Part shown: positions 35,499-50,482 of the stretch, one piece after another
Layout of the letters: every line of letters starts with the position of its first letter
How positions within the stretch are numbered: the first letter of the stretch is position 1
NCBI GenBank assembly: GCA_964346905.1
Contig: CAYFXH010000001.1
Location: forward strand, 1,280-65,279
Direction of reading: 5' to 3'
Length of the DNA stretch: 64,000 nucleotides
Source: an uncultured Desulfobacteraceae bacterium
GTDB taxonomy: Bacteria; Desulfobacterota; Syntrophobacteria; BM002
The notes under the pieces: model-generated
Told to the model about the DNA's origin: nothing
Database searches by the model: none
The model's input: only the letters and a program-made list of their open reading frames with translations
Position numbers and translations under genes: made by a program

Positions 35499-35927
35499 AT
35501 GAATGAAAAAACTGATATCATGAAAATATTTGATTACGACACGAATTTTCAAGCCATAATGAGGTATTTGCTGGAGAATGCAATGGAACACTCTTTCGAC
35601 GCGATTATGATAACAAAGGCAGAACCCGGCTACCCGGTTATTTATATCAACGATGCCTTTACCGTACTCACTGGCTACAGCGCCGAGGAGATAATCGGTA
35701 AGTCACCAGCTGTTTTGCAAGGGCCCAAGACGGATCGTGCTGTATTGGATCGACTGGAGCGAGAATTATCAGAGGGTCGGCTTTTCCACGGTGAAGCGAT
35801 TAATTATCGCAAAGATGGTTCTGAATTTGTGATGGAGTGGAAGATCGTCCCCATCAAAAACAAAAGAGAAGAAACCTCCCATTATCTTGCCATTCAACGA
35901 GACGTTACCAAGTTGAGAAATCATTAG
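35499..35927 (+). CDS. Stand-alone PAS domain protein, LOV-like but lacking the adduct-forming cysteine
   Basis: 142 aa; DAIMITKAEPGYPVIYINDAFTVLTGYSAEEIIGKSPAVLQGPKTD aligns to the LOV core (GKNCRFLQGPETD), with the Cys position occupied by Pro. Confidence 0.6.
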   Translation: MNEKTDIMKIFDYDTNFQAIMRYLLENAMEHSFDAIMITKAEPGYPVIYINDAFTVLTGYSAEEIIGKSPAVLQGPKTDRAVLDRLERELSEGRLFHGEAINYRKDGSEFVMEWKIVPIKNKREETSHYLAIQRDVTKLRNH

Positions 35928-35935
35928 GTAAATGC

Positions 35936-37042
35936 ATGGAAGACGAACTGAGACAAGTTTTAAGTTACTATGACCTGGGTGAACCCAGAAGCATTCAACG
36001 GGTCGAGTGTGGCTTTGTCAACGACAACTGGGTGCTTGAAACAACCCGTGGACAATACTTTTTGAAGCGCCGCCATACTGACTTGCGAAATCCAGAAGTT
36101 ATCTGCTTCCAGCATGACCTCATGCAGCATCTCAGGCAGGCGGAATTCCCGGCTCCAGCCATTCTGCCCACCATAAGCGGAGAAACTTTTTTGGTGCATG
36201 CTGGCGAGTTCTACGAGATTCAGGAGTATATCAACGGGGCACCATGCGAACACTTTTCTCCACCGCATATACACGTAGCCGCTCTGATGCTTGGCCACTA
36301 CCATGCTTGCGTTCGGGACTTCGTCCCCAGACCCCTGTGTGATTTTGGGGATCTCTACAGTCCTGCTATCCTCATAAACAACCTGACCAGACTATCGGAG
36401 GCTTGGGCCCTCCATCGGGACCCTACCCTGAGGCAAATTGTCCATCAGTTGGAGACCCAGGCGGAAGAACTAGCGGCTCTTTTCACCGAGCATGGAGAGC
36501 TCCCCCATCTGGTAATCCACGGTGACTATCACGCGGGCAACCTTCTGTTCCAAGGTGACCGTATCATTGGAGTGGTCGACTATGACAAGTCTTGCTACCA
36601 GCCTCGGGTTGTAGAGTTGGCCGAAGCCTTGATTTACTTTGCCTCGACCCGGCCAGGTCATCTAAAGCACCTGGTGTATCTCGGTTTTCTTGAGTGGGGT
36701 ACGTTCATGACATTCATGTACCATTATGGTTGTGGACTCAGCTCCTTTGCCAAGGAACCTGTCCAGTACGACCACCGTCCGGAGGCAGATCGGCCCAGCG
36801 ATCTAGCCTGTCAGGCTGGGGACGTTTTTCTCAAGGCAAACGAAGTGTACGCCCTGCCGGACTACATCCGTTGCATCTGGCTTTCGGTCTCGCTCCAACG
36901 GCTGTTGGAAAAAACCTCCCGCTCACCAGTAGCTCTGGAAGCCCTGCGAGAGGTACTGGCACTGGGGCAATGGGCCGCCACCAATAGGGAACGGATTATC
37001 CACTCCGCGCTAGAAAAAATATCTGACGTGGCAGAGCGTTAG
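35936..37042 (+). CDS. Phosphotransferase-family (APH/choline-kinase-like) protein
   Basis: Start Met34 of ORF 35837..37042, 8 nt after the PAS stop. Brenner motif VIHGDYHAGNLLF and DYD catalytic/metal motif. Confidence 0.7.
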   Translation: MEDELRQVLSYYDLGEPRSIQRVECGFVNDNWVLETTRGQYFLKRRHTDLRNPEVICFQHDLMQHLRQAEFPAPAILPTISGETFLVHAGEFYEIQEYINGAPCEHFSPPHIHVAALMLGHYHACVRDFVPRPLCDFGDLYSPAILINNLTRLSEAWALHRDPTLRQIVHQLETQAEELAALFTEHGELPHLVIHGDYHAGNLLFQGDRIIGVVDYDKSCYQPRVVELAEALIYFASTRPGHLKHLVYLGFLEWGTFMTFMYHYGCGLSSFAKEPVQYDHRPEADRPSDLACQAGDVFLKANEVYALPDYIRCIWLSVSLQRLLEKTSRSPVALEALREVLALGQWAATNRERIIHSALEKISDVAER

Positions 37043-37091
37043 ACAGGCAACGGTTAGGCTGCATCTGCCTGCACCTGTTCAAGGAGTAGCC

Positions 37092-37691
37092 ATGATAAAA
37101 GCTATCATTTTCGATTTCGGCCGGGTCATCTCGACCCAAAAGCCGCCATCCCTCTTCAGCGGCTATGAAAAGGATTTGGGACTCCCCCCCGGAACGCTCA
37201 ACCCTATTATGTTCGCTAGCCGGGCCTGGCAAGATACCTTGATTGGCCACAAGACCATTGAAGAGTTCTGGGACGAAATTGGGCCCAAGCTTGGACTGAA
37301 TACTCCCGAGGAAATTGAGGAGTTCCGCCGTCGGTACCGGGCTGATGAAGCGGTTAACGAGGGTGTGCTGAATCTACTCCATCGGCTGCACGGCCATTAC
37401 AAGCTGGCGGTACTCTCCAATGCACCGCCTGGCCTGGGCCAATGGCTGGGCGACTGGGGGATGCTCCATCTGTTCGATGTGCTGTTCTGCTCCGGAGACG
37501 AAGGCGTGGTAAAGCCAGAGCCGGCTGCTTTTACTATCACCCTAGAACGACTCGGCGTGGAGCCCAATGAAGCAGTGTTCATTGACGATACACTGGAACA
37601 CGTGGAGGCAGCCAGGACACTGGGGCTGCACGGAATACTGTTCACCACCGCAGAAGCTCTGGAGGCGGAATTAGATGGCTTACTTGCTTGA
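37092..37691 (+). CDS. HAD-superfamily hydrolase (subfamily IA)
   Basis: 199 aa; motif I IKAIIFDFGRV (DxD-type), SNAPP motif II, GDE...D motif IV region. Confidence 0.75.
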   Translation: MIKAIIFDFGRVISTQKPPSLFSGYEKDLGLPPGTLNPIMFASRAWQDTLIGHKTIEEFWDEIGPKLGLNTPEEIEEFRRRYRADEAVNEGVLNLLHRLHGHYKLAVLSNAPPGLGQWLGDWGMLHLFDVLFCSGDEGVVKPEPAAFTITLERLGVEPNEAVFIDDTLEHVEAARTLGLHGILFTTAEALEAELDGLLA

Positions 37692-37712
37692 AGACCAGAT
37701 GAGGGAGGAAAG

Positions 37713-38363
37713 ATGGCGACCGTTGTGAGCAATGACCACATTAAAATTGATCGGTTAGAATTGGGGCCGTTCGGCACTAATGGGTACATCTTAACCTGCC
37801 AAAAGACACAAGAGAGTGTGGTGATTGACGCCCCCGGCCAAGTCGACAGAGTCCTGGAAGCGCTGGAGGATACACACCCCCAATACATCCTAATTACTCA
37901 TGACCATTTTGATCATGTGGGTGGTCTTTCCCGGTTGAAATCAGCCTTGAACGTTCCCGTCGCTGCCCACCCTGCAGATGGTGACGGGCTTCCCCTACCT
38001 GCGGATATTCTCCTACATGACGGTGAGGTACTATCCTTTGGAGCCAGAGAGCTTACGGTGTTGCACACACCGGGCCACACTCTGGGAAGCATATGCTTGC
38101 TGACCGGGAATTACTTGATTGCGGGGGATACGTTATTTCCGGGAGGTCCGGGTAAAACCCAATCACCCGCAGACTTCCGGCAGATTATTGAATCCATAAC
38201 CCAGAAGATTTTCACATTGCCGGACAACACCCACGTGTATCCCGGACACGGGGAAGCAACAACGGTCAAGGAGGCAAAAAAACAGTACGAGGTTTTCTCA
38301 ACCCGACCGCACGATCCGGATCTTTGCGGGGATGTGGTTTGGGATAAATCGCAGAGCGCATAG
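37713..38363 (+). CDS. MBL-fold metallo-hydrolase
   Basis: 216 aa; ITHDHFDHVGG (HxHxDH) and downstream His/Asp ligands. Confidence 0.8.
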   Translation: MATVVSNDHIKIDRLELGPFGTNGYILTCQKTQESVVIDAPGQVDRVLEALEDTHPQYILITHDHFDHVGGLSRLKSALNVPVAAHPADGDGLPLPADILLHDGEVLSFGARELTVLHTPGHTLGSICLLTGNYLIAGDTLFPGGPGKTQSPADFRQIIESITQKIFTLPDNTHVYPGHGEATTVKEAKKQYEVFSTRPHDPDLCGDVVWDKSQSA

Positions 38364-38499: not shown

Positions 38500-39195
38500 T
38501 TACCAACCTATTACCACTCGGTGAAAACCTTCCGCCAGTTCAAAATCCTCCCCTTCAGCCATCTCCCTGCACCGCTCTCTCAGCCAATCTTCAGGGTCCG
38601 GATTGGGGAATCCCTGTACCTGGCTCTGGTGGCAACGTAGGGCCGCAATTTTAAGATCAAAGGTATCGGTGATGTCCGAGCGATAGTTAATGTCTTCCGC
38701 CGCCCAGAATAAGATCTCATCTACATTGTGAGGCTCCAAACCTTCCTCTAACAAATCAGGGTAGGCAAGATGATCCCGAGAGTACGGGAAAACTGCATCG
38801 AGAGTAACCTGCCCGGCAATGCGATGGTCGCGATGCCAGAGGTAACGACGGTAGGGATCCGAGGTCACCACGATCCTGGGCTGGTACATGCGTATAAAGC
38901 GAACGATCTGCTTACGAAATTCCGGCGTGTCTTCCAACTCCTGATCCGGGTATCCCAGGAATATTACTTCTCGGACCCCAAGGATCTTGGCCGCAGCCTG
39001 TTGCTCCTTTTTTCTGATTTCGGCCAATTGTTCAGGTTTGAGGCTCCGGTCGCTGGTTCCCTTGTCGCCATTGGTGCAGACAACGTAGACAACCTGCTTT
39101 CCTTCTCTGGTCCAGCGCGCTACTGTTCCTGCCACCCCGAATTCGGCGTCATCCGGATGAGCTGTTACCACCAGTACGTCCGTTGCTTTCGTCAC
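38500..39195 (-). CDS. PIG-L/LmbE-family N-acetylglucosaminyl deacetylase (MshB/BshB-like)
   Basis: Start chosen at GTG (Val71 of ORF 38500..39405) with AGGAGG RBS 6 nt upstream, giving 232 aa; signature VLVVTAHPDDAEFGVAGT and downstream His/Asp. Confidence 0.75.
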   Translation of the reverse strand: MTKATDVLVVTAHPDDAEFGVAGTVARWTREGKQVVYVVCTNGDKGTSDRSLKPEQLAEIRKKEQQAAAKILGVREVIFLGYPDQELEDTPEFRKQIVRFIRMYQPRIVVTSDPYRRYLWHRDHRIAGQVTLDAVFPYSRDHLAYPDLLEEGLEPHNVDEILFWAAEDINYRSDITDTFDLKIAALRCHQSQVQGFPNPDPEDWLRERCREMAEGEDFELAEGFHRVVIGW

Positions 39196-39250
39196 AACGA
39201 ACCTCCTAAAAAGTCGAGACTCGAGTAGTTCAATGAAATACCGAATGATG

Positions 39251-40459
39251 TTACCTGAGTATGGCTGTGTATTCTTCCAGCATAGCGGACGCCACATTTG
39301 CCCAGCTAAATTGGAGGACCGACGCGCGAATTGCTTCAGCGGATAGTCCGTTGGAGTTCGAGATAAAAGCTTCGATACCGTTTGCCAGTAAACGGGGAGA
39401 ACCATTGGTCACCAGATGTCCTGTCTCACCTTGGCGGAGGATGCTCTCCATAGCCCCCACCTTCGTTGCCACCACCGGTGTGCCAGAGGCGAGCGATTCC
39501 AAGGCCACCAGCCCAAAGCTCTCGTAGTAAGAGGGCACAACCAAGACATCTGCGGCATTGTAGTACGGCGGCAGGTTATCCTGTTCGATCCTTCCCACAA
39601 AGGTCACGGAATCCTGAATACCCAACTTCCAGGATAATCTTTGGAGGTTTTGCGACTCCGGTGTATGATGGCCATCGCCACCGACAATTACCAGTCGAAG
39701 CCTTTGATGATTCAGAAGGCGGGCCACGGCCTCAAGCAATCGGTCTATTCCCTTCAATGGCGCAAATCTGCCCACGAACAACACAATCGACTCATCCTCC
39801 GCAAAACCCAACTGCTCTCGCGCCCTCGCTTTGTCCCATGGGCGGAAAAGATCCAGGTTGACACCACACGGTACAACGCCAATTGTCGCAGAGGACGCCC
39901 CATAGTGTTGCATTAGATGGTCTCTTTCTCTGTGGGTGGCGACGAGAATGCGGTTACAATTATGTGCCAAATGCTGTTCGGTGGCTGTACGCAGTTCGGG
40001 TTCTTTCTCCGCACCAACTGTACTGTTCTTTACCGCGCCAACAGTATGGAACATGAAAAGATGAGGGACTTCCCAGCGTTCATGGGCCCATTTCCCCACC
40101 CGACCGGAGAGCCAGTAGTTACTATGTACAAGGTCATAGTCCAACGACTCGTATGTTCTAAATCTTTCCAGCTCCCGGAAAAAATCAGGCAGATAGGGAT
40201 AAAGTGCCAATTTGTTCATATCACCGTTGTTCCCGGCTTTTAGATGAATGAGTCGGACGTTCTCACATAGTTCAACTCTCTGAGTATCAGCTGCATTACT
40301 GAGACGCGTATAAATGTCGACCAAATGGCCGCGGTTTCCCAGCTCCCGGGCAAGCTCACGGACATAGACACTCATGCCTCCGGTGTCTTTTGTCCCTAAT
40401 TCTCCTAGCGGACTTGAATGAACGCTCAACATTGCAATTCTTAACTGTTCTGCTTCCAC
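39251..40459 (-). CDS. GT4 glycosyltransferase of the MshA/BshA (N-acetylglucosaminyl-transferase) family
   Basis: 402 aa; IAMLSVHSSPLGELGTKDTGGMSVYV, DLVHSNYWLSG, HTVGAVKNS, PSYYESFGLVALESLASGTPVVA align block-for-block with Corynebacterium MshA (from memory). Confidence 0.75.
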   Translation of the reverse strand: MEAEQLRIAMLSVHSSPLGELGTKDTGGMSVYVRELARELGNRGHLVDIYTRLSNAADTQRVELCENVRLIHLKAGNNGDMNKLALYPYLPDFFRELERFRTYESLDYDLVHSNYWLSGRVGKWAHERWEVPHLFMFHTVGAVKNSTVGAEKEPELRTATEQHLAHNCNRILVATHRERDHLMQHYGASSATIGVVPCGVNLDLFRPWDKARAREQLGFAEDESIVLFVGRFAPLKGIDRLLEAVARLLNHQRLRLVIVGGDGHHTPESQNLQRLSWKLGIQDSVTFVGRIEQDNLPPYYNAADVLVVPSYYESFGLVALESLASGTPVVATKVGAMESILRQGETGHLVTNGSPRLLANGIEAFISNSNGLSAEAIRASVLQFSWANVASAMLEEYTAILR

Positions 40460-40503: not shown

Positions 40504-41481
40504 TCAGAGTTTAATCTGGCATCTATACAAGGTAACAGGTTTACCTCCCAACCGATGTTTGTAATCCTCTGCGCCTTTGAGAAAATCGTACCTCTCTTTT
40601 CCTCTCTGAATGCTTTCTTGAATGGTGAATACCTTACTGAGCAGACCCACGTTCAGCGAACTGAATCTGCCGTCATACCCATTGTTGTAAAGATATATCG
40701 TCGAATTATAATCAAAACACATCACCGCGGCTGCAGGTGTCCCGTCAAGTTCGAGGATAAACAGTTGCAATAGCTTGAGCGTTGCCATTGTCTCGGCCAG
40801 TGACCGAAAAAAAGAAGCCATCTGACTAGTCATAAAAGCTGCCTTATCGGCTCGACTCAATCCAAACAGCGCCAAAAAGGTGTCCATTTCCTCCAGGACT
40901 TCTCTTACATCCTCCACAACCCGATATCTGATGTCTGCAGCCTCATCTAATCTCCTGAGTTTTCGTCTCACTTCGTGCCGCTGTTTTCCGGTCAACATGT
41001 GCAAGAATTCATCCCAGCTTGCCGGCAACTCTAACTCCAGGGTAACATCCTCGGGATCGCAAAAAACCTCGCACTCCAGCGCTTTGGCCACGTTGACAAA
41101 ATCGGTGAGCACTTTAGAGTCGGCACGTACGGAGTTCAGATCCAGGTGAGTGATACCCTGCTCCCTTAAATGATTGATGAGAATCTCAGAAAACTCCCCT
41201 ACCCTCCCAGGGGTGACGATGAAATCTTGGTAATCGCAAACATCAGGATCGCCCATGAAGCGGGCCTCTCTTCCTTCCAGCAAAAACGGCGCGATACCGA
41301 TCACTTCTTCCCCGTCTTTCACCGCGTAGAGGGAGGGAGCCAATTCAGCACTGAATACGTTCCACCATACCTCCAGCCAGCCGGGCAAAACAAAGAGACA
41401 ATCCCACTCCAGGACATATCCCGGATCTAGCCAGTAAGAGGCGAGATTTTCAAAGGTCTCTTCAGTTACGGTATATGCCAT
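40504..41481 (-). CDS. FemAB/CelD-like tandem-GNAT acyltransferase (Acetyltransf_6-like)
   Basis: Start Met27 of ORF 40504..41559 (GAAGGTGA RBS). ~326 aa with two GNAT-like halves; architecture typical of aminoacyl-tRNA-dependent transferases (FemX/FemAB) and CelD; no precise motif verified. Confidence 0.5.
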   Translation of the reverse strand: MAYTVTEETFENLASYWLDPGYVLEWDCLFVLPGWLEVWWNVFSAELAPSLYAVKDGEEVIGIAPFLLEGREARFMGDPDVCDYQDFIVTPGRVGEFSEILINHLREQGITHLDLNSVRADSKVLTDFVNVAKALECEVFCDPEDVTLELELPASWDEFLHMLTGKQRHEVRRKLRRLDEAADIRYRVVEDVREVLEEMDTFLALFGLSRADKAAFMTSQMASFFRSLAETMATLKLLQLFILELDGTPAAAVMCFDYNSTIYLYNNGYDGRFSSLNVGLLSKVFTIQESIQRGKERYDFLKGAEDYKHRLGGKPVTLYRCQIKL

Positions 41482-41574
41482 GGTCACCTTCGGAGTATTG
41501 GTACTGTAACGATTGCGGATTGCGGAATTTGGTGATTTCCCTGCTTTGCAATCCTTCATGCTGAAATCTGTAAT

Positions 41575-42006
41575 CTACAAGCTGACCTTGCCGCCGCTTC
41601 TAAAATCTCCACCACCCGTACCAAGTCTTCCAAGGGAGCTGCTATTGGCTCTCCCGTCAACAAATGATCGGCTAGGTTCCGATGAAAAAGATAATGCTCT
41701 CGTTTGGGCAATGCCAGTTTTTGGGTGATAAGTAGTACCTACTGGGATCGCATCATGGGAATGCCAGTAGCCACAGGGGTGCGCAAAACTGCCCACGAAG
41801 GTCTCCATGTAAAAGAGGTCGCCAATCAGCCCATGAGCGAGTGCTTGTTTAATCGCCAAGTAGTCCACGTCCCACCGCCGGTTTTGGTGGCAGCTCAGAT
41901 GCACCCGCTGTTTTTTGGCCATCTCCACCATGGCGGCTGTTTCCTTTTGGCTCAATGCCAGGGGCTTTTCACAGACCACATGCTTCCCTGCTGCCATCAT
42001 TTGCAA
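41575..42006 (-). pseudogene. Gfo/Idh/MocA-family oxidoreductase remnant (N-terminal Rossmann region and C-terminal domain missing)
   Basis: ORF begins at AAGKHVVCEKPLAL, the motif that normally lies ~90 aa into Gfo/Idh/MocA proteins. Only 75 nt separate it from the upstream gene. C-terminal 40 aa are low-complexity, suggesting frameshift. Confidence 0.5.
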
Positions 42007-42080: not shown

Positions 42081-43334
42081 CTATGACTTCAGTCGCCACT
42101 GCGCGCCATCTCCAGTATCCTCAACTATTATGTCTGCTCGCTGGAGGCTGTCGCGGATGACGTCGGCTTCTTGCCATTGTTTCTTTTGTCGGAACTCCTG
42201 GCGCAACTTGAGTAGCTCTTCCACGAGAGGGGCAAGACAATCAGCCCTATTTTTTGGAGAAGCCTCAAGTCTCATTCCTAAAATGACTATCAAATCTCGA
42301 AAAATTTCTTTAGCTTGGGAAATGAATTCCTCGTTTTCATGATCCTGCTTGGCTCTCCAGATAACCCGATCAAGCTCCAAAAGAGCGTTGGTGGCTTCTT
42401 TCGGTTCGTCTTTTTCGAGGCCGAGCCGAAAGGTGTTTTCGATTGCATGAATGGTATCCCAGAAGGACTCTGCATCAACATCAGAGGTAGGTTTGAAAAT
42501 CGCTTGCTTTGGGGTTGTCGGTTTCCACTCCTTACCCATCTCTCCTCCACGGAGAACATCAAGAGAAAAACGGTCACCCTTTTCAAAGACCAACTCAGCT
42601 CCCCGACAACGTAGGGTCGCAGTGCCGAGTCCCTTAATGAGAGCTTCTTCTTTTTCAAAATCAATGAGGCAGGCCGTATGTTCATCCAAGCCAAAAATGG
42701 ATACATCCTTGGGCAAGAGGGACTCGAGCTTGCGAAAGCGCGATTCACCCATGAAACAGAAACGGGTGTCGTGAGTCCCACCTTCAGCGTTGTTCCAATG
42801 GGGAATCACCACCAGATTGAAGCCGAAGTGGTGGAGTATATTCATCCCCTCCACCCAATGCAGGTCTTCGCCCACCTTGTAAATCTCATAGACTGGGAGA
42901 GTGAAGCGTCCCAGGGTCAGGGCGGCAGCACTGGCAGCCACTAGGCAACCGCCGGATTCGATCTGCTTTATCAAGATTTCAGGTACGGGTGTTTGCTGCC
43001 ACTGGCGAAGGGCATACGTCGGACTTCCTGGGCCAATCAGAATAAAGTCGGCCTCCCGCAGCGTATGAAAGGCCTGCTCGGCTTCGTATGGTGTGATCCT
43101 CTCGTTTGACTGAAACGAGGCTGTTGACATGGGTTGTTGAACATGGATACGAAAATAATCCAAGGCTCTCTTGGATATCTGATCAACATTAAGCTGAAAG
43201 CCAGCCGGCGTATCGAGAAATACGGCTCGGGGATCTTGAGCAAATCCCGCCAGTAACTCCTTGTGAACTTCAACCATGGTTGCAGTGAGTTCACCTGAGC
43301 CCATGAGGGCGATAATTCCTTTCCTTGATGACAC
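42081..43334 (-). CDS. Fusion protein: peptidase S51/cyanophycinase-like (class I GATase-like) N-terminal domain + C-terminal tRNA-anticodon-binding region of cysteinyl-tRNA synthetase
   Basis: 417 aa. N-terminal IALMGSGE...FLDTPAGF...ILIGPGSPTYALR...GGCLVAASAAALTLG resembles the S51 fold. C-terminal ...LRQEFRQKKQWQEADVIRDSLQRADIIVEDTGDGAQWRLKS aligns with E. coli CysRS C-terminus ...[39 protein letters not shown] (from memory). No HIGH or KMSKS motifs present. Confidence 0.6.
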   Translation of the reverse strand: MSSRKGIIALMGSGELTATMVEVHKELLAGFAQDPRAVFLDTPAGFQLNVDQISKRALDYFRIHVQQPMSTASFQSNERITPYEAEQAFHTLREADFILIGPGSPTYALRQWQQTPVPEILIKQIESGGCLVAASAAALTLGRFTLPVYEIYKVGEDLHWVEGMNILHHFGFNLVVIPHWNNAEGGTHDTRFCFMGESRFRKLESLLPKDVSIFGLDEHTACLIDFEKEEALIKGLGTATLRCRGAELVFEKGDRFSLDVLRGGEMGKEWKPTTPKQAIFKPTSDVDAESFWDTIHAIENTFRLGLEKDEPKEATNALLELDRVIWRAKQDHENEEFISQAKEIFRDLIVILGMRLEASPKNRADCLAPLVEELLKLRQEFRQKKQWQEADVIRDSLQRADIIVEDTGDGAQWRLKS

Positions 43335-43749
43335 GCCGAACTTCTTTCCAGTGAGCCACAGAGGCCACTGATCATTGGATTGAGTTCAGAGACTGCTGAG
43401 CTACCGTCTCCATTGATAATCAAAACCGACACCCAACTGGATAAGATAAGCCACTTTTGTTAACTAGTAAAGGTCACACCATGTTCTTTGCTGAAGAGAG
43501 AGCTTCACTTTGCGCATTGGACGGGATGCTTCCATGTTTAGTAGTCTCTGCCAAGATCTATCCCAGACGGCAATCGCTGGGGGTACAGAGGACGTCTTGA
43601 TCACACACGAAGAGCTCGGCAGGTAAGATGAGACCCGTGCAACGTGTTTCCGGTTGGCACACCCCTTGCTTCTGTATATGTATTGCAATCTGTGGCAACC
43701 AGTAGTCTGCACCATTCACTGGTCTACTTTGGTGAAGCGAGAACGAGAA

Positions 43750-43980
43750 ATGACGTACATTTGCATAAAATGTAGAAAAACCTGGGTCAGTGGAACTCAT
43801 ACTGATCAGTATTCCGGGGGATTGTGCCAAGCGTGCACTACGGAGTACATTAGAGAGAGGCAAAAAAGCCACGGGTTTCATGATTGCTTCAAACGGGCAG
43901 TTGAAGTCTGTTCAAGAGACGAATGCAGTTACTGGCTCTTGTGCAACAGAGATCTTATGGAGAAGAGGGGATGTGCGTGA
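43750..43980 (+). CDS. Small Cys-rich (9 Cys / 76 aa) putative zinc-ribbon protein
   Basis: Internal Met of ORF 43654..43980; CIKC...CQAC...HDC...C...DEC pattern; weak RBS, so uncertain. Confidence 0.25.
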   Translation: MTYICIKCRKTWVSGTHTDQYSGGLCQACTTEYIRERQKSHGFHDCFKRAVEVCSRDECSYWLLCNRDLMEKRGCA

Positions 43981-44107: not shown

Positions 44108-45208
44108 CTACTTCGAGGCCAGCATGTAACCTTTCCGGGCCATGTGGCTGGTTAGCAGACCGTCTAGACCGTTGTAAAACACCAGGAGAATGAGGGCAAC
44201 GATAAGACTCTCCTGCTCTCCGCTCAAAAACGCCAATATCACCACCGCCCAAATCACCATCGAGCCCAATAATTCCAGACTGCCTAACAACGTGTGACCG
44301 AGATACATGTCTCTCAATCCGGGCAATAACAAAGATCTCAAAAAAGCTGTCTTTGGGTTTTTAAACTCTGCCTGGCATTTTGGGCATGCAAGCAAGTTTT
44401 TCGCAAGCGGCACGTAACAGGAGGGACAGAGGTCTTCAACCGCAGCTTCCGCTGTCTTTGCGGCCTTGAAAAGACGCTGCCTTTCCCGAACAAATTGTTG
44501 AAAATCTTTCGCCATGTACCGCTTCATCCCGGTAAAGATACGACGTTTGCCTTTCTGCCGGTGGAGTACGAGACTCGTGCCGAACAGACCCGTCCCAACT
44601 TTGCTGATGGTCTCATAGGGTATCTGGAAAAAGTAGTGGGTCGGCTTTGAAATTTTTTGATTTACATTGATGAACAGGAGTCTCTGACTGGTGCCCACCA
44701 CTGCATAGTGATTGTACAGCGTCGTCAAGTAGCCGTTTCCAAAAATAATCTCTGATGGGTAATAGGCCGTTGCTTTACCAATTCGCATGGCTTGCTCATC
44801 GCTTAGTAGCATTTTATCCAGCGTTCCATGCACCGCCTTAAGAATTTTGACCTTAAACGTGTTTCTTCTGGTCTTATAGGCTCCTTTTTTACTGGGGGTA
44901 ATCATTCCATCAAGCTTCAGTTTTTCAGAGGTCAGATTCTGCAACTCCGGGTATTCAGTGATGAGAGTTAATTCAGACTCAGACCGATCTCTTTCCTGGG
45001 GAATTTGGTAGTTTGCATCATTGGACGGAGGTGTTACAGCAGCAAAGTCGGACACCATCTGGGCATCCAGAATCATGTCTTGCTCCCCATGCGGCTCAAC
45101 GAGAAATTTTCCTCCACATCTTTTGCAACTGGCTTGAACGGGCTTTTCCGGGATTTTGTCGCTTGCAACCTTGTACTGAGTGTTACAGATGGGACAAACA
45201 ATCTGCAT
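44108..45208 (-). CDS. Membrane protein with N-terminal MJ0042-type zinc ribbon, central bacterial PH-like domain, second CxxC...CxxC pair and C-terminal TM helices
   Basis: MQIVCPICNTQYKV...CKRCGGKF; later CPSCYVPLAKNLLACPKCQAEF; hydrophobic C-terminus. Confidence 0.5.
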   Translation of the reverse strand: MQIVCPICNTQYKVASDKIPEKPVQASCKRCGGKFLVEPHGEQDMILDAQMVSDFAAVTPPSNDANYQIPQERDRSESELTLITEYPELQNLTSEKLKLDGMITPSKKGAYKTRRNTFKVKILKAVHGTLDKMLLSDEQAMRIGKATAYYPSEIIFGNGYLTTLYNHYAVVGTSQRLLFINVNQKISKPTHYFFQIPYETISKVGTGLFGTSLVLHRQKGKRRIFTGMKRYMAKDFQQFVRERQRLFKAAKTAEAAVEDLCPSCYVPLAKNLLACPKCQAEFKNPKTAFLRSLLLPGLRDMYLGHTLLGSLELLGSMVIWAVVILAFLSGEQESLIVALILLVFYNGLDGLLTSHMARKGYMLASK

Positions 45209-46921: not shown

Positions 46922-47698
46922 ATGTGGCAGACAGAGATGAAGAAGATGGTTGGGTTGCTTGTGACGGTACTGTGGCTGGTCTTTTTTGCTCACCAGACGG
47001 CAACCGCTCACTTCGGTATGATCATTCCTTCAGATGAGATGGTTATGAGGGGGGAAAGCCCGAATGTCGCCGTGCAGCTCATGTTCTGGCACCCCTTCGA
47101 AGGTCAGGGAATGGAACTGGCGAAGCCCGCACAATTTGGCGTGGTGGCAAACGGCAGCAAGCAGGACTTGTTACATACGCTCAGTTCTAGAAAGATCAAA
47201 GAACATACCACCTGGCAGACTACCTATCGAATCAGGCGGCCCGGACTTTATATTTTTTACATGGAGCCGCAGCCTTACTTGGAGGCTGCGGAAAATTCTT
47301 ACATCATTCATTACACCAAGACCGTAGTTGCAGCTTATGGTAAGGACGAAGGCTGGGATGAACCCATCGGCCTGAAAACCGAAATCGTCCCCCTAAGCAG
47401 ACCTTTTGGCCTTTACGTGACCAATGTGTTTCAAGGGGTGGTTATGCGCAATGGGAAACCCGTGGCCGGTGTCGAGGTGGAAGTCGAGTACTTCAATGTG
47501 ACTGGTACGTATTCCGCCCCTACGGACTACATGGTGACCCAGACCACTAGGACCGACCCGAACGGGGTTTTTACTTACGCGGTCCCCAAGGCTGGCTGGT
47601 GGGGTTTCGCCGCCATCACCACTGATGATCACCAAATCAACGGTAAAGATGTGGAAATTGGCGCTGTGCTATGGGTCAAGTTCCATCTGATGCAATAG
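46922..47698 (+). CDS. DUF4198-family periplasmic component of Ni/Co ECF transporter (NikK-like)
   Basis: 258 aa, signal peptide, adjacent and upstream of cbiM in same orientation; start may be Met6. Confidence 0.55.
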
Positions 47699-47707
47699 GA
47701 AAGAGCC

Positions 47708-48322
47708 ATGCATATTTCTGAAGGAATACTGTCAGCACCCGTGCTGATTACCGGTGCAGCCCTCACAGCTGCCGGTGTTGCCGTGGGGCTAAGGAAGATG
47801 GACAATGAGAATATTCCCCGGGTTGCCGTCTTGACCTCGGCGTTTTTCGTCGCTTCACTGATACGTGTACCTCTGGGCCCTTCCGCTGTGCATCTGGTTT
47901 TAAACGGCCTTCTCGGGTTGGTACTTGGCTGGGCCGCATTTCCGGCTATTCTTGTGGGCGTGGCGCTCCAAGCCCTCCTTTTTCAGTTTGGCGGGTTGAC
48001 TACTCTGGGTATAAATACCTTCATCATGGCCATGCCCGCTATCCTCTGCTATTACTTCTTCGCCAGAACCATTATCCAGAAACAATCAGGGGTGGCCATG
48101 GCCCTTGCCTTTGCCAGCGGCTTTGTTGCAATCTTTCTGAGTGCTCTCCTGTTGGCCCTATCTCTAAGATTTACGGGAGAATCGTTTCTCGAGGCAGCCA
48201 AGCTTCTCGTGGTAGCACACCTTCCCGTGATGGTTCTCGAGGGTGCTGTTGCCGCCTTCTGTTTGGCGTTCCTCATGAAGGTCAAACCAGATCTCCTGGG
48301 AGCACCTCATGCCACCGGGTAG
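47708..48322 (+). CDS. cbiM: ECF transporter substrate-specific component CbiM/NikM
   Basis: N-terminal MHISEGIL (hallmark MHIxEG), 5-6 TM helices. Confidence 0.85.
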   Translation: MHISEGILSAPVLITGAALTAAGVAVGLRKMDNENIPRVAVLTSAFFVASLIRVPLGPSAVHLVLNGLLGLVLGWAAFPAILVGVALQALLFQFGGLTTLGINTFIMAMPAILCYYFFARTIIQKQSGVAMALAFASGFVAIFLSALLLALSLRFTGESFLEAAKLLVVAHLPVMVLEGAVAAFCLAFLMKVKPDLLGAPHATG

Positions 48323-48971
48323 GAAACGGAGTCTTTTTCAGAAGGCGGCCATTGCCAGCTTCGTTGGAATCTTGCTCGCCTCGACGCTGATGGCCACCAG
48401 TCTCCTGGCCCACAAGGTGAACGTGTTTGCCTGGGTTGAGGGTGACATAATCTTCGTGGAGGGCTATTTCCCCGGTGGCAAAAACGCGCAGAATTCACTG
48501 GTGGAAGTATTCAACCAGGCTGGAGCCAAACTTTTGGAAGGAAGAACCAACGAAAAGGGCGAGTTCTCCTTCAAGACTCCAGAAAAGACCGATCTTAAGA
48601 TCGTGCTCAGCGCCGGGATGGAGCACAGGAACGACTTCACTGTGTTTGCCAGCGACTTTGCAGAAACAGCGCCATCGCCGGCCGCACCCTTCCGAGAACT
48701 CCAGGAGAGCGAGACACTCTCCGGTGAGGTTGATGAGGACATGCGGCGGCTGGAAGCACTAATCAACCGAACGTTGGACCGCAAGCTTACCCCGGTAATC
48801 AAACTCATCCGCGACTCCAGGAGAGAGGGCCCGACTTTTTCTGAGATCGTTGGAGGTATTGGTTATATTTTCGGACTCGTTGGGGTGGCGCTTTATTTTA
48901 GTAATAGAAAAAAGAAAGAAGGCGGTCAGCGGTCAGCGGTCAGCGGTCAGCAAGATACGGACGGGCAGTAA
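48309..48971 (+). CDS. CbiN/NikL-like accessory membrane protein with periplasmic beta-sandwich-like domain
   Basis: N-terminal TM, HKVNVFAWVEGDIIFVEGYF...EKGEFSFKTPEKTDLKIVL, C-terminal TM; position between cbiM and cbiQ. Confidence 0.45.
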   Translation: MPPGRKRSLFQKAAIASFVGILLASTLMATSLLAHKVNVFAWVEGDIIFVEGYFPGGKNAQNSLVEVFNQAGAKLLEGRTNEKGEFSFKTPEKTDLKIVLSAGMEHRNDFTVFASDFAETAPSPAAPFRELQESETLSGEVDEDMRRLEALINRTLDRKLTPVIKLIRDSRREGPTFSEIVGGIGYIFGLVGVALYFSNRKKKEGGQRSAVSGQQDTDGQ

Positions 48972-49052
48972 TCATTTCCAAGTGCTGCTGTACGAATTAT
49001 CACCTGTTGCGTTTTGATTCTTGCTTATAGCTGACGGCTGATAGCTGATAGC
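48923..49052. repeat. (cggtcag)x4 tandem at the 3 end of 48309..48971 and imperfect inverted copy gctgacggctgatagctgatagc 60 nt downstream
   Basis: Seen directly; encodes GGQRSAVSGQQ tail; arms could pair as a 3 hairpin. Confidence 0.5.
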
Positions 49053-49061
49053 TCAAAAGAA

Positions 49062-49820
49062 ATGCACATAGATAACTTCGCCAGCGGAGATTCCCTTCTC
49101 CATCGTCTCGATCCCCGAGTGAAAATAGTCGTCGCTACGCTGTTTTCTGTGGTGGTTGCCCTCGCAGATAACTACCTTTGCCTGGTGACAGCTGTTGGCG
49201 TAGCTGTCACTTTGCTGCTTGTGGCCCGGCTCTCTTGGAAACAGGTCGCTCTCCGTTTGCTCGCGGTAAACACCTTTATTTTCTTCCTTTGGCTTTTTTT
49301 GCCTTTCACCTACGGAGGTGAAGAACTCTTCAGTATCGGTCCCTTGCACGCTACACGTGAAGGGATTGGTTACGCCCTGCTCATCACGGTAAAGTCGAAT
49401 ACCATTGTGCTCGGACTGATCGCGCTGCTCGCCACCAGTCCCATTATCACCCTTGGCCACGCTATGAGCCATCTTCATGTTCCCGACAAATTGATTCATC
49501 TTTTCTTCTTTACCATCCGGTATCTCCAGGTACTCCATTTGGAGTACGAGCGGTTGCGTGATGCCATGAGGATTCGCGGATTCAAACCTCGCTCCAACCT
49601 GCACACCTACAAAAGCCTAGCTTATCTCATTGGCATGCTCTTGACCAAGAGCTTTGATCGGGCTGAACGCATTAGAAAAGCAATGCTCTGTCGAGGATTT
49701 CACGGAAAATATTATCTCATTAGTCATTTTAAGCTGAAGAGAGGCGACATGGCCATGTTTGTCTTCATGATGCTGATCATAAGTGGGATGGTGGCGTTGC
49801 AATGGCTAACCCCGAAGTAA
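49062..49820 (+). CDS. cbiQ: ECF transporter transmembrane (T) component CbiQ
   Basis: 252 aa multi-TM; conserved ARG-containing C-terminal loop (AMRIRGF...RIRKAMLCRGF). Confidence 0.8.
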   Translation: MHIDNFASGDSLLHRLDPRVKIVVATLFSVVVALADNYLCLVTAVGVAVTLLLVARLSWKQVALRLLAVNTFIFFLWLFLPFTYGGEELFSIGPLHATREGIGYALLITVKSNTIVLGLIALLATSPIITLGHAMSHLHVPDKLIHLFFFTIRYLQVLHLEYERLRDAMRIRGFKPRSNLHTYKSLAYLIGMLLTKSFDRAERIRKAMLCRGFHGKYYLISHFKLKRGDMAMFVFMMLIISGMVALQWLTPK

Positions 49821-50482
49821 TCATAAACGTGAACCGGATCTCCTTTGCGTACCATGGGAACCAAGCCAAACGGCCGGTTCTGGATGATCTCAATTTCCAG
49901 CTAATCCGCGGGGAACGGGTGGGTTTGATCGGCGCCAATGGCAGTGGTAAGACCACGCTTTTTCACCTGATCATGGGGCTCCTGCCACCGACCCGGGGAG
50001 ATATTGAGGTGTTCGGCGAGAAGCGAAGACAGGAAAAAGATTTCAAAGAAGTCAGAGAGAGGATCGGTCTGCTCTTTCAGGATGCCGATGATCAACTTTT
50101 CTGCCCCACGGTGGCCGAAGACGTGGCCTTCGGTCCGCTGAACCTGGGAAAGACCCAAGAGGAAGCAGGAGCTATCACTCAGGATATCCTAACGAGGCTC
50201 GGGCTGGAAGGTTTTCAGAAGCGTTTAACCTATAAGCTTTCAGGAGGGGAGAAACGGCTGGTTGCTTTGGCCACTGTCCTGGCCATGCAACCAGAAGTTC
50301 TCATCCTTGATGAACCCAGTACCGGCCTCGATGAAGATACGATGAAACTACTCGTCCATATACTCAACAACTCTGACCTTACCTACCTCATCGCCTCCCA
50401 CAATACCGATTTTCTGACACAGACCACTGATGTTATCTACCGGCTGGCAAATGGGAAGATAACCAGAACAACTGAGAGCTAA
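49802..50482 (+). CDS. cbiO: ECF transporter ATP-binding (A) component CbiO
   Basis: Walker A GANGSGKTT, signature LSGGEKRL, Walker B ILILDEP. Confidence 0.85.
   Translation: MANPEVIINVNRISFAYHGNQAKRPVLDDLNFQLIRGERVGLIGANGSGKTTLFHLIMGLLPPTRGDIEVFGEKRRQEKDFKEVRERIGLLFQDADDQLFCPTVAEDVAFGPLNLGKTQEEAGAITQDILTRLGLEGFQKRLTYKLSGGEKRLVALATVLAMQPEVLILDEPSTGLDEDTMKLLVHILNNSDLTYLIASHNTDFLTQTTDVIYRLANGKITRTTES

Follow-up and report, generated by a model that had tools for sequence, protein, structure and literature searches.

What does a hydrolase do with the anticodon reader of a tRNA synthetase? The question is raised by a gene of an uncultured Desulfobacteraceae bacterium, found in a 64,000-nucleotide stretch of contig CAYFXH010000001.1 that was analysed as a whole and is called the window below. 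The gene, referred to here as the target (P0001), encodes a protein with a head of the S51 peptidase family, to which peptidase E (PepE) and cyanophycinase belong, and a tail derived from cysteinyl-tRNA synthetase (CysRS). An earlier note, made from the letters of the window, had read the protein in this way and had suggested that it might recruit tRNA(Cys) or hydrolyse an aminoacyl bond; within the limits of computation that reading finds support. The fusion family is real, ancient, widespread and uncharacterised. We tentatively favour the view that the target serves a mycothiol-like biosynthetic operon as a catalyst that is directed to tRNA(Cys) and works through a serine acyl-enzyme, a serious possibility though short of a probable one. 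Its reaction on the cysteinyl ester may be transfer, proofreading or recycling.

The target corresponds precisely to one minus-strand open reading frame (ORF; 42081..43334) of 417 amino acids (aa) with a GTG start, a start supported by close homologues of 416-417 aa that cover the protein over 100% of its length. Its AlphaFold2 (AF2) model has a mean predicted local distance difference test score (pLDDT) of 91.8 and a predicted template modelling score (pTM) of 0.79. Residues 1-262 (42549..43334, minus strand) make up the S51 (PepE/cyanophycinase-like) domain, recognised by Pfam, the family profile and Foldseek. They are followed by a linker of low model confidence and poor conservation (residues ~263-287; 42474..42548, minus strand) and by a CysRS-derived helical bundle and anticodon-binding domain (residues ~288-417; 42084..42473, minus strand), in which the Pfam CysS_C match lies at 42093-42236. 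The S51 fold proper spans about residues 6-257 and the CysRS-like part about residues 293-416. Within the linker, residues 268-279 have pLDDT below 50 and no secondary structure in the model, and the linker has no consensus in the alignment of relatives (A1: 76 diverse full-length sequences, ~33-67% identity) over which conservation is counted throughout. With both halves matched by Pfam, profile and Foldseek comparisons within one ORF, the fusion of an S51 domain to a CysRS tail is confirmed.

The protein is not a synthetase. A motif search found no HIGH or KMSKS-type motif anywhere in it, in agreement with the earlier note, and CysS_C, S51, CofD and DALR_2 were the only Pfam families matched at E up to 1. 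The cysteinyl-tRNA synthetase model TIGR00435 scores 33.8 bits against a cut-off of 340, and only over model positions 362-464. Because the catalytic core was tested for and is absent, the target is neither CysRS nor MshC. It differs from the class I CysRS of E. coli (1li5/1u0b) in having no Rossmann catalytic domain, no HIGH/KMSKS motifs and no CP or stem-contact domain; lacking the catalytic domain and its motifs, it cannot activate cysteine. A selenocysteine lead was rejected: the apparent in-frame stops of the target gene in three genomes (G021, G178 and G150) are terminal stop codons.

What the target shares with CysRS is the helical bundle and the anticodon-binding domain. Pfam CysS_C (PF23493) matches residues 367-414 (E 3.7e-10; 40.2 bits against a gathering score of 23), and residues 313-414 align to positions 362-464 of the 466 in the NCBIfam cysS model. 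A profile built from the 76-member family matches CysRS structure 8qhp (E 1.5e-15) and residues 332-460 of E. coli CysRS (1li5/1u0b; E 4.7e-13), a span that comprises the bundle and the anticodon-binding domain. Foldseek with the AF2 model retrieves chain B of the CysRS-tRNA(Cys) complex (1u0b_B) at 27% identity. The homology to the C-terminal tRNA-binding region of CysRS, which had been seen by eye over ~110 residues, thus holds over slightly more (~125), and the tail is not an unrelated coiled coil.

Two papers give R427, W432, D436 and R439 as anticodon contacts of E. coli CysRS (1U0B), and R423 as part of the hydration network around G34 (PMC13449415; PMC12684709, citing Hauenstein 2004). 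Mapped through the family-profile alignment, R423 corresponds to R378 of the target (codon at 42201-42203, minus strand as are the following), which is present in 76/76 relatives. R427 corresponds to R382 (42189-42191; 74/76, the other two having Lys), W432 to W387 (42174-42176; aromatic in 75/76), D436 to D391 (42162-42164; 76/76) and R439 to R394 (42153-42155; 76/76). Other positions of the tail mostly have no consensus. Because the five contact positions are near-invariant while most of the tail drifts, we infer that the tail still reads the GCA anticodon of tRNA(Cys); this is the strongest single argument for its doing so. A CysRS anticodon-binding domain with five conserved contacts also sets the target apart from a conventional peptidase E with no tRNA link, the alternative that the earlier note had named.

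The head is a divergent member of S51 by fold and by triad. Pfam Peptidase_S51 (PF03575) covers residues 9-225 at 22.8 bits, just under its cut-off of 23.9, and some homologues of the target score above that cut-off. The family profile matches the S51 structure 6nqc with E 3.4e-13, and Foldseek with the AF2 model returns 6nqc (E 3.8e-14; template modelling score, TM, 0.84), PepE 6a4r (E 1.7e-12) and cyanophycinase 3en0 (E 1e-10), which bears out the S51/class-I-GATase-like fold read from the letters. The segment GGCLVAASAAA (residues 128-138), proposed earlier as a possible nucleophile elbow, fits that role, its Ser135 aligning with the S51 nucleophile. His179 (in IPHW) and Glu218 (in LDEHT) align with the remaining triad positions, and in the family-profile alignment the three residues fall on the SAG, PH and DE motifs of 6nqc (for the PepE catalytic triad see PMC9239234). 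These triad candidates are kept in 75/76 (Ser135; 42930-42932), 76/76 (His179; 42798-42800) and 74/76 relatives (Glu218; 42681-42683), all being encoded on the minus strand.

Two family-specific insertions flank the catalytic His. One is PVYEIYKVG at residues 147-155, with the family form PVYE[IV]YK[VA]G, and the other is NAEGGTHDTRFC at residues 182-193, with the family form NAEGGxHDTRFC. Both are near-invariant among the 76 relatives and missing in 6nqc and in tail-less S51 paralogues, which argues that the active site of the target is specialised, not decayed. The target therefore resembles PepE, the cyanophycinase CphB, MccG and the acI-B1 peptidase (6nqc) in fold and in Ser-His-Glu triad positions, and differs from any characterised S51 enzyme in the two insertions and in its 155-residue linker-plus-tail.

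The family is large. A word-indexed search found more than 8000 close relatives of the target, and 460 clusters at 50% identity were collected at E up to 1e-30. The fusion is present in at least 588 species genomes of Desulfobacterota, Nitrospirota, Nitrospinota, Syntrophomonadaceae, Chloroflexota, Actinomycetota (mainly Acidimicrobiia), Rokubacteria and others, and in 24 of 201 sampled genomes of the window's phylum; the best relatives of the target come from Syntrophobacteria-type metagenome-assembled genomes. Members go under the names 'peptidase E', 'cyanophycinase-like exopeptidase', 'hypothetical', 'CysRS-like' and 'CysS/YqeB C-terminal domain-containing'. Shorter members keep S51 and CysS_C with a reduced helical bundle, and no fusion partner beyond these two domains was found in longer ones. 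A literature search, which was not exhaustive, found no publication on the S51-CysRS-tail fusion or on a tRNA-dependent mycothiol-like pathway.

In 12 loci (L016, L017, L018, L022, L023, L027, L029, L040, L043, L046, L050 and L051) the full-length gene is immediately preceded, on its own strand, by a tail-less S51 paralogue (~230-280 aa, ~700-850 bp). The paralogue ends 15-480 bp upstream of the target homologue, and in L046 it overlaps the homologue's predicted start. This paralogue is conventionally cyanophycinase-like, with an intact triad, and shares 21-25% identity with the target head.

Which pathway might such a protein serve? All flanking ORFs at the 76 loci were clustered without prior labels, and the resulting neighbour counts are minima, as contig ends cut many loci. 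Recurrent neighbours lie mostly downstream of the target homologue and on the same strand, across several phyla. A GT4 glycosyltransferase is near it in 35/76 loci and a tandem GNAT, on the same strand, in 34/76. One or two GFO/IDH/MocA oxidoreductases, one of them with a ThuA domain, are near it in 23/76 loci and a PIG-L deacetylase in 19/76. An MBL-fold hydrolase (8/76), myo-inositol-1-phosphate synthase (Ino1; 7/76) and a HAD phosphatase (6/76) also occur near the operon. The order target > (GFO > GFO >) GNAT > GT4 > PIG-L is found in records from Deltaproteobacteria, Desulfobacterales, Nitrospirota, Nitrospinaceae and Thermodesulfobacteriota, and in the complete genome CP070692. The window keeps this order from 43334 down to 38500, with the oxidoreductase pair reduced to a 143-aa remnant.

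The remnant (41575..42006, minus strand) is of the GFO/IDH/MocA, inositol-dehydrogenase-like type; it matches Pfam GFO_IDH_MocA only at profile positions 80-117 and gives a partial iolG-like match. Intact ThuA-GFO and GFO genes stand between target and GNAT in L003 and many other loci, and the window's genome seems to have lost the oxidoreductase step while keeping the rest of the operon.

The GNAT (40504..41559, minus strand) is a FemX-like tandem protein and a predicted aminoacyl-tRNA-dependent transferase, by its Pfam matches (Acetyltransf_6 and FemAB_like, the latter at E 1.6e-5, below cut-off) and by its fold. Its AF2 model has pLDDT 92.3, and the top Foldseek matches are FemX, FemA, Sbb17, Sba18 and MprF (E ~1e-10 to 1e-11, TM 0.55-0.74). 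Sbb17 and Sba18, matched at TM 0.70-0.74, depend on aminoacyl-tRNA and have been crystallised with the amino sugar streptothrisamine. Acyl-CoA tandem GNATs rank lower than the aminoacyl-tRNA transferases; MshD is not among the first 50 structural matches, its model TIGR03448 not having been searched. A profile of the GNAT found no match among the sequences of the Protein Data Bank, so that the fold search alone is informative.

Next in order is an MshA-like GT4 (39251..40459, minus strand), a predicted UDP-N-acetylglucosamine (UDP-GlcNAc):inositol-phosphate glycosyltransferase. Its full-length match to the MshA model TIGR03449 scores 366.8 bits, short of the 462.5 cut-off, and the next family scores 121 bits. 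The PIG-L family N-deacetylase (38500..39405, minus strand; Pfam PIG-L E 1e-36) is BshB/MshB-like, scoring 109 bits against BshB1 and 59 bits against MshB, both under the cut-offs. Translation probably begins at a later codon than the first ATG, since the domain does not start until residue 78 and the ORF and the GT4 gene overlap. In one genome (G021) the GNAT and the GT4 are fused in a single 704-aa ORF (L098:2223-4337, plus strand), with the target homologue before it and PIG-L after it, which ties both steps to one scaffold. Promoter and terminator scans gave results at or below shuffle expectation and were of no use for setting the limits of the operon, and a look at public sequencing runs turned up no RNA data set.

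Convergent with the operon are three plus-strand genes (35837-38363), for an APH-type kinase, a HAD phosphatase and an MBL hydrolase; the kinase does not recur elsewhere, the other two do. The HAD-family protein (37092..37691, plus strand; Pfam HAD) is a candidate GlcNAc-inositol-phosphate phosphatase, which would carry out the MshA2-type step. The MBL-fold hydrolase (37713..38363, plus strand; Lactamase_B) is glyoxalase-II-like and scores 99 bits against GloB (TIGR03413), below cut-off.

Taken together, these genes probably follow the logic of mycothiol synthesis up to glucosaminyl-inositol (GlcN-Ins). Ino1 would supply inositol phosphate, the MshA-like glycosyltransferase would add GlcNAc, the HAD protein would remove the phosphate and PIG-L would expose the amine. 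Three Ino1 genes are present in the genome of the window, whose assembly is 95.5% complete. It lacks BshC and GshA, and nothing in it reaches the MshC cut-off, so the MshC-type cysteine step is left without an assigned enzyme; the sole match to the MshC model (TIGR03447) is an ordinary CysRS (317.8 against 485.1 bits). Apart from the target, the genome encodes a full-length CysRS on contig C79. A single tRNA-Cys(GCA) is among the 38 tRNAs found in this incomplete assembly, and the window itself has no tRNA genes. In the 201-genome sample of the phylum BshC occurs once and GshA not at all (1/201 and 0/201), a near absence that leaves no contrast between target-positive genomes and canonical thiol pathways. 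Both operon genes that remain have a link to aminoacyl-tRNA, the GNAT by its fold and the target by its tRNA(Cys) anticodon reader. The functional idea of the earlier note, tRNA(Cys) recruitment or aminoacyl hydrolysis, is strengthened by the conserved anticodon contacts and by the place of the target as first gene of an operon that also encodes sugar enzymes of the mycothiol type and a FemX-like transferase.

How could a serine hydrolase fold take part in a cysteine step? In the mechanism we propose, the tail would dock on the GCA anticodon of Cys-tRNA(Cys), and Ser135 would attack the cysteinyl ester at A76 to give a Cys-O-Ser intermediate, comparable to the Asp-O-Ser of PepE and to the action of MccG on aminoacyl-nucleotides. 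Residues H188, D189, T190, R191 and C193 of the second insertion, beside the catalytic His, would form the cysteine/A76 pocket. It is conceivable that the conserved His, Asp and Cys of this insertion bind zinc for the cysteine thiolate, as CysRS does. The GlcN amine would then resolve the acyl-enzyme to Cys-GlcN-inositol, making the target a functional analogue of the ATP-dependent ligase MshC. The FemX-like GNAT, in the position of MshD, would draw on a second aminoacyl-tRNA and place its aminoacyl group, not acetyl, on the Cys amine as a cap. The mapping onto the mycothiol pathway would be one to one, with GT4 as MshA, HAD as MshA2, PIG-L as MshB, the target as MshC and the tandem GNAT as MshD. 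Acyl-enzyme chemistry is plausible for the target, by analogy, because the reaction of PepE passes through an aminoacyl-O-Ser intermediate, built from a free N-terminal residue, and because MccG, also of S51, has been established experimentally to cleave an aminoacyl-nucleotide bond (PMC9239234). The complete claim, that an S51 serine acyl-transferase selects Cys-tRNA(Cys) through a CysRS-derived reader and ligates Cys to GlcN-inositol, would amount to a new class of aminoacyl-tRNA-dependent enzyme and to an MshC-independent route to an unrecognised mycothiol-like thiol in anaerobic Desulfobacterota, Nitrospirota and others. We regard that claim as rather unlikely in its entirety, though with a realistic chance.

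The proposal has relatives on several sides. MshC, itself derived from CysRS, is truncated at the anticodon-binding end. The CysRS* of Desulfobacterales is reported to lack the anticodon-binding domain, and both proteins, like the target, put CysRS-derived parts to non-canonical uses (PMC9437257). Both keep the catalytic core (PMC9437257), whereas the target is the reciprocal piece, an anticodon reader on an unrelated hydrolase. The operon with its MshA-like glycosyltransferase, PIG-L and Ino1 matches the pathway context of MshC, with the difference that any cysteine ligation by the target would use Cys-tRNA and not ATP plus Cys. The GNAT has the fold of the streptothricin-type enzymes Orf11 and Sbb17/Sba18, which carry out FemX-type amino-sugar aminoacylation, and, as in the formation of glycylthricin, it would come after a deacetylase that would expose the sugar amine (PMC12945691). 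Those pathways have no anticodon-reading partner, however, and here the predicted scaffold is GlcN-inositol and the setting is a widespread anaerobe operon in place of an actinomycete antibiotic cluster.

Several observations weigh against the favoured reading of the target, as an acyl-enzyme catalyst of this operon. A single polypeptide would have to span ~70 Angstrom from the anticodon to the CCA end, a distance that the elongated bundle, together with the flexible linker of 25 residues, could bridge. Every characterised S51 enzyme (PepE, cyanophycinase, MccG) is a hydrolase, not a transferase (PMC9239234). The FemX-like GNAT could transfer Cys from Cys-tRNA by itself, in which case the role of ligase is already filled, and a thiol role for the end product is suggested by nothing beyond analogy and the GloB-like neighbour. 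One member of the family is named 'CysS/YqeB C-terminal domain-containing protein' by NCBI; the name suggests that CysS_C also occurs in non-synthetase proteins, so that the domain alone is no proof of a tRNA role.

Co-occurrence cuts both ways. In the 201-genome sample the GNAT is found in 21/24 target-positive against 19/177 target-negative genomes, a contrast that is descriptive only, kin not being independent. The target occurs without the GNAT in 3/24 of these genomes and in 2/5 distant ones, and the GNAT-GT4(-PIG-L) module occurs without the target in some lineages (f27, f32 and f53), both of which count against the proposal. The module is unlinked from the target in f40 and f48. At the f48 loci (L094:6707-7837, plus strand; L095:9347-10477, minus strand) a 376-aa radical-SAM/SPASM protein is encoded immediately upstream of the GNAT.

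The distant members, too, weigh against the favoured reading. All four distant actinobacterial (three) and Chloroflexi (one) genomes have MshC-like genes at 405-416 bits; in the fifth distant genome, a Rokuibacteriota record, the MshC model reaches 318 bits, which is CysRS level. The target homologues of the distant Actinobacteria and Chloroflexi adjoin an alpha/beta-hydrolase and znuABC, not the operon; members from Acidimicrobiia and other Actinobacteria share 37-41% identity with the target. From this it follows that the core activity must make sense without the operon, and the operon-less members favour a definition of the family by (Cys-)tRNA(Cys) and not by GlcN-inositol.

The actinobacterial loci L070, L073, L074, L076, L078, L079 and L081, whose family members are 37-40% identical to the target, have a fixed context: the alpha/beta-hydrolase gene precedes the family member on its own strand, and a zinc-uptake cluster (znuA-ABC-permease) follows in convergent orientation. 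CysRS selects cysteine by means of zinc; a zinc link of these loci is speculative.

If hydrolysis is all that the head performs, the target may be a proofreader or deacylase, a reading that we consider possible if doubtful and that is the main rival of the favoured one. The GNAT would move Cys (or another residue) from aminoacyl-tRNA to GlcN-inositol, and the target would hydrolyse the aminoacyl ester on tRNA(Cys), clearing a wrong aminoacyl group or controlling the Cys-tRNA(Cys) pool in a manner akin to trans-editing, on an S51 fold. Read most simply, the architecture is that of a hydrolase equipped with a module for binding a specific tRNA, and this agrees with the hydrolytic record of the S51 family. 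The FemX-like fold of the GNAT already accounts for tRNA-dependent transfer, and the presence of the target in GNAT-less genomes and beside MshC-like genes fits a general tRNA(Cys)-linked role. The likeness to the trans-editing factors AlaX, YbaK/ProX and DTD is confined to the concept of a hydrolase aimed at a specific aminoacyl-tRNA; the Pfam scan at E up to 1 detected no sequence similarity to them. Some trans-editing factors carry an appended tRNA-binding domain, and we know of no editing factor with an S51 fold or a synthetase anticodon-binding domain, nor of one in a sugar-modifying operon. Further, CysRS is accurate without editing, and the first-gene position in a biosynthetic operon across phyla is unusual for translation quality control. 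The patchy distribution of the family within the phylum argues that its function is not housekeeping.

An ordinary S51 peptidase, trimming a small peptide or amide (Asp-X-like or a pathway product) and using its tail for dimerisation, protein contact or a non-tRNA ligand, is unlikely. The fold and triad are conventional, members are labelled 'peptidase E' in databases, the 12 loci with a tail-less paralogue immediately before the target homologue suggest that the pathway involves peptide or amide chemistry, and the NCBI name cited above suggests CysS_C outside synthetases. The near-invariance of five anticodon positions at ~33-67% identity, while the rest of the tail drifts, is nevertheless hard to explain without an RNA ligand. 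The helical bundle is kept along with the small domain, and the two conserved active-site insertions are what the tail-less paralogues and 6nqc lack.

Could the target instead take the product apart? As a tRNA-gated recycling amidase its S51 domain would cleave the Cys-GlcN amide to free cysteine, the tail would sense uncharged tRNA(Cys) and the thiol pool would serve as a cysteine reserve. Enzymes of the PepE type work on aminoacyl-X amides whose amine is free (PMC9239234). Such a role would fit both contexts, the operon lineages and the Actinobacteria each having GlcN-inositol-type pathway genes, and would account for the target without the GNAT. A degrading enzyme would however be odd as the first gene of a biosynthetic operon, and the cysteine of mycothiol is N-acetylated, hence without the free amine that PepE-type enzymes require. 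To our knowledge, tRNA-gated peptidases have no precedent. We think the reading distinctly improbable.

Least probable, and very unlikely in our estimate, is a specificity adaptor that grips the tRNA(Cys) anticodon, presents the acceptor end to the FemX-like transferase and competes with EF-Tu, its S51 domain being secondary or structural: target and GNAT are strongly linked and co-occurring and Fem-type enzymes read the acceptor arm only (PMC2655667), but conservation of the triad and of the active-site insertions points to catalysis, and the GNAT module occurs without the target in several lineages, as does the target without the GNAT.

Upstream of the target in the window, on the same strand, are a 107-aa ORF without a family (43558-43881, minus strand) and a gene whose 366-aa product has an MJ0042-type zinc ribbon at its N-terminus (44108-45208, minus strand), neither of which is conserved beside the target at other loci. 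Farther on lies an ECF/Cbi-type metal uptake cluster (46922-50482, plus strand), which encodes a DUF4198 protein, CbiM, a small unknown protein, CbiQ and an ABC ATPase. In L013, L016 and L031, too, CbiQ/ABC genes are near the operon, probably as synteny only.

What is new here is the combination, as the domains and the pathway logic are each already known. The recognised classes of enzymes that use aminoacyl-tRNA outside translation are aminoacyl-tRNA synthetase-like enzymes, Fem/GNAT transferases, cyclodipeptide synthases and PEARLs (PMC12945691), and a 2026 review of aminoacyl-tRNA-dependent enzymes has no S51-fold class in its list. If the tRNA(Cys)-directed, acyl-enzyme reading of the target is true, a serine-hydrolase fold with the anticodon reader of a synthetase would add a class to these, and a free CysRS anticodon-binding module would be put to a use not known before. 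Misleading labels ('peptidase E', 'hypothetical' or 'CysRS-like') stand on thousands of database entries. In size and conservation the family lends itself to straightforward biochemistry. It is a strong candidate for experimental work. With GshA and BshC almost absent from the phylum sample and MshC from the window's genome, the operon is a concrete candidate for the source of the redox thiol of these anaerobes.

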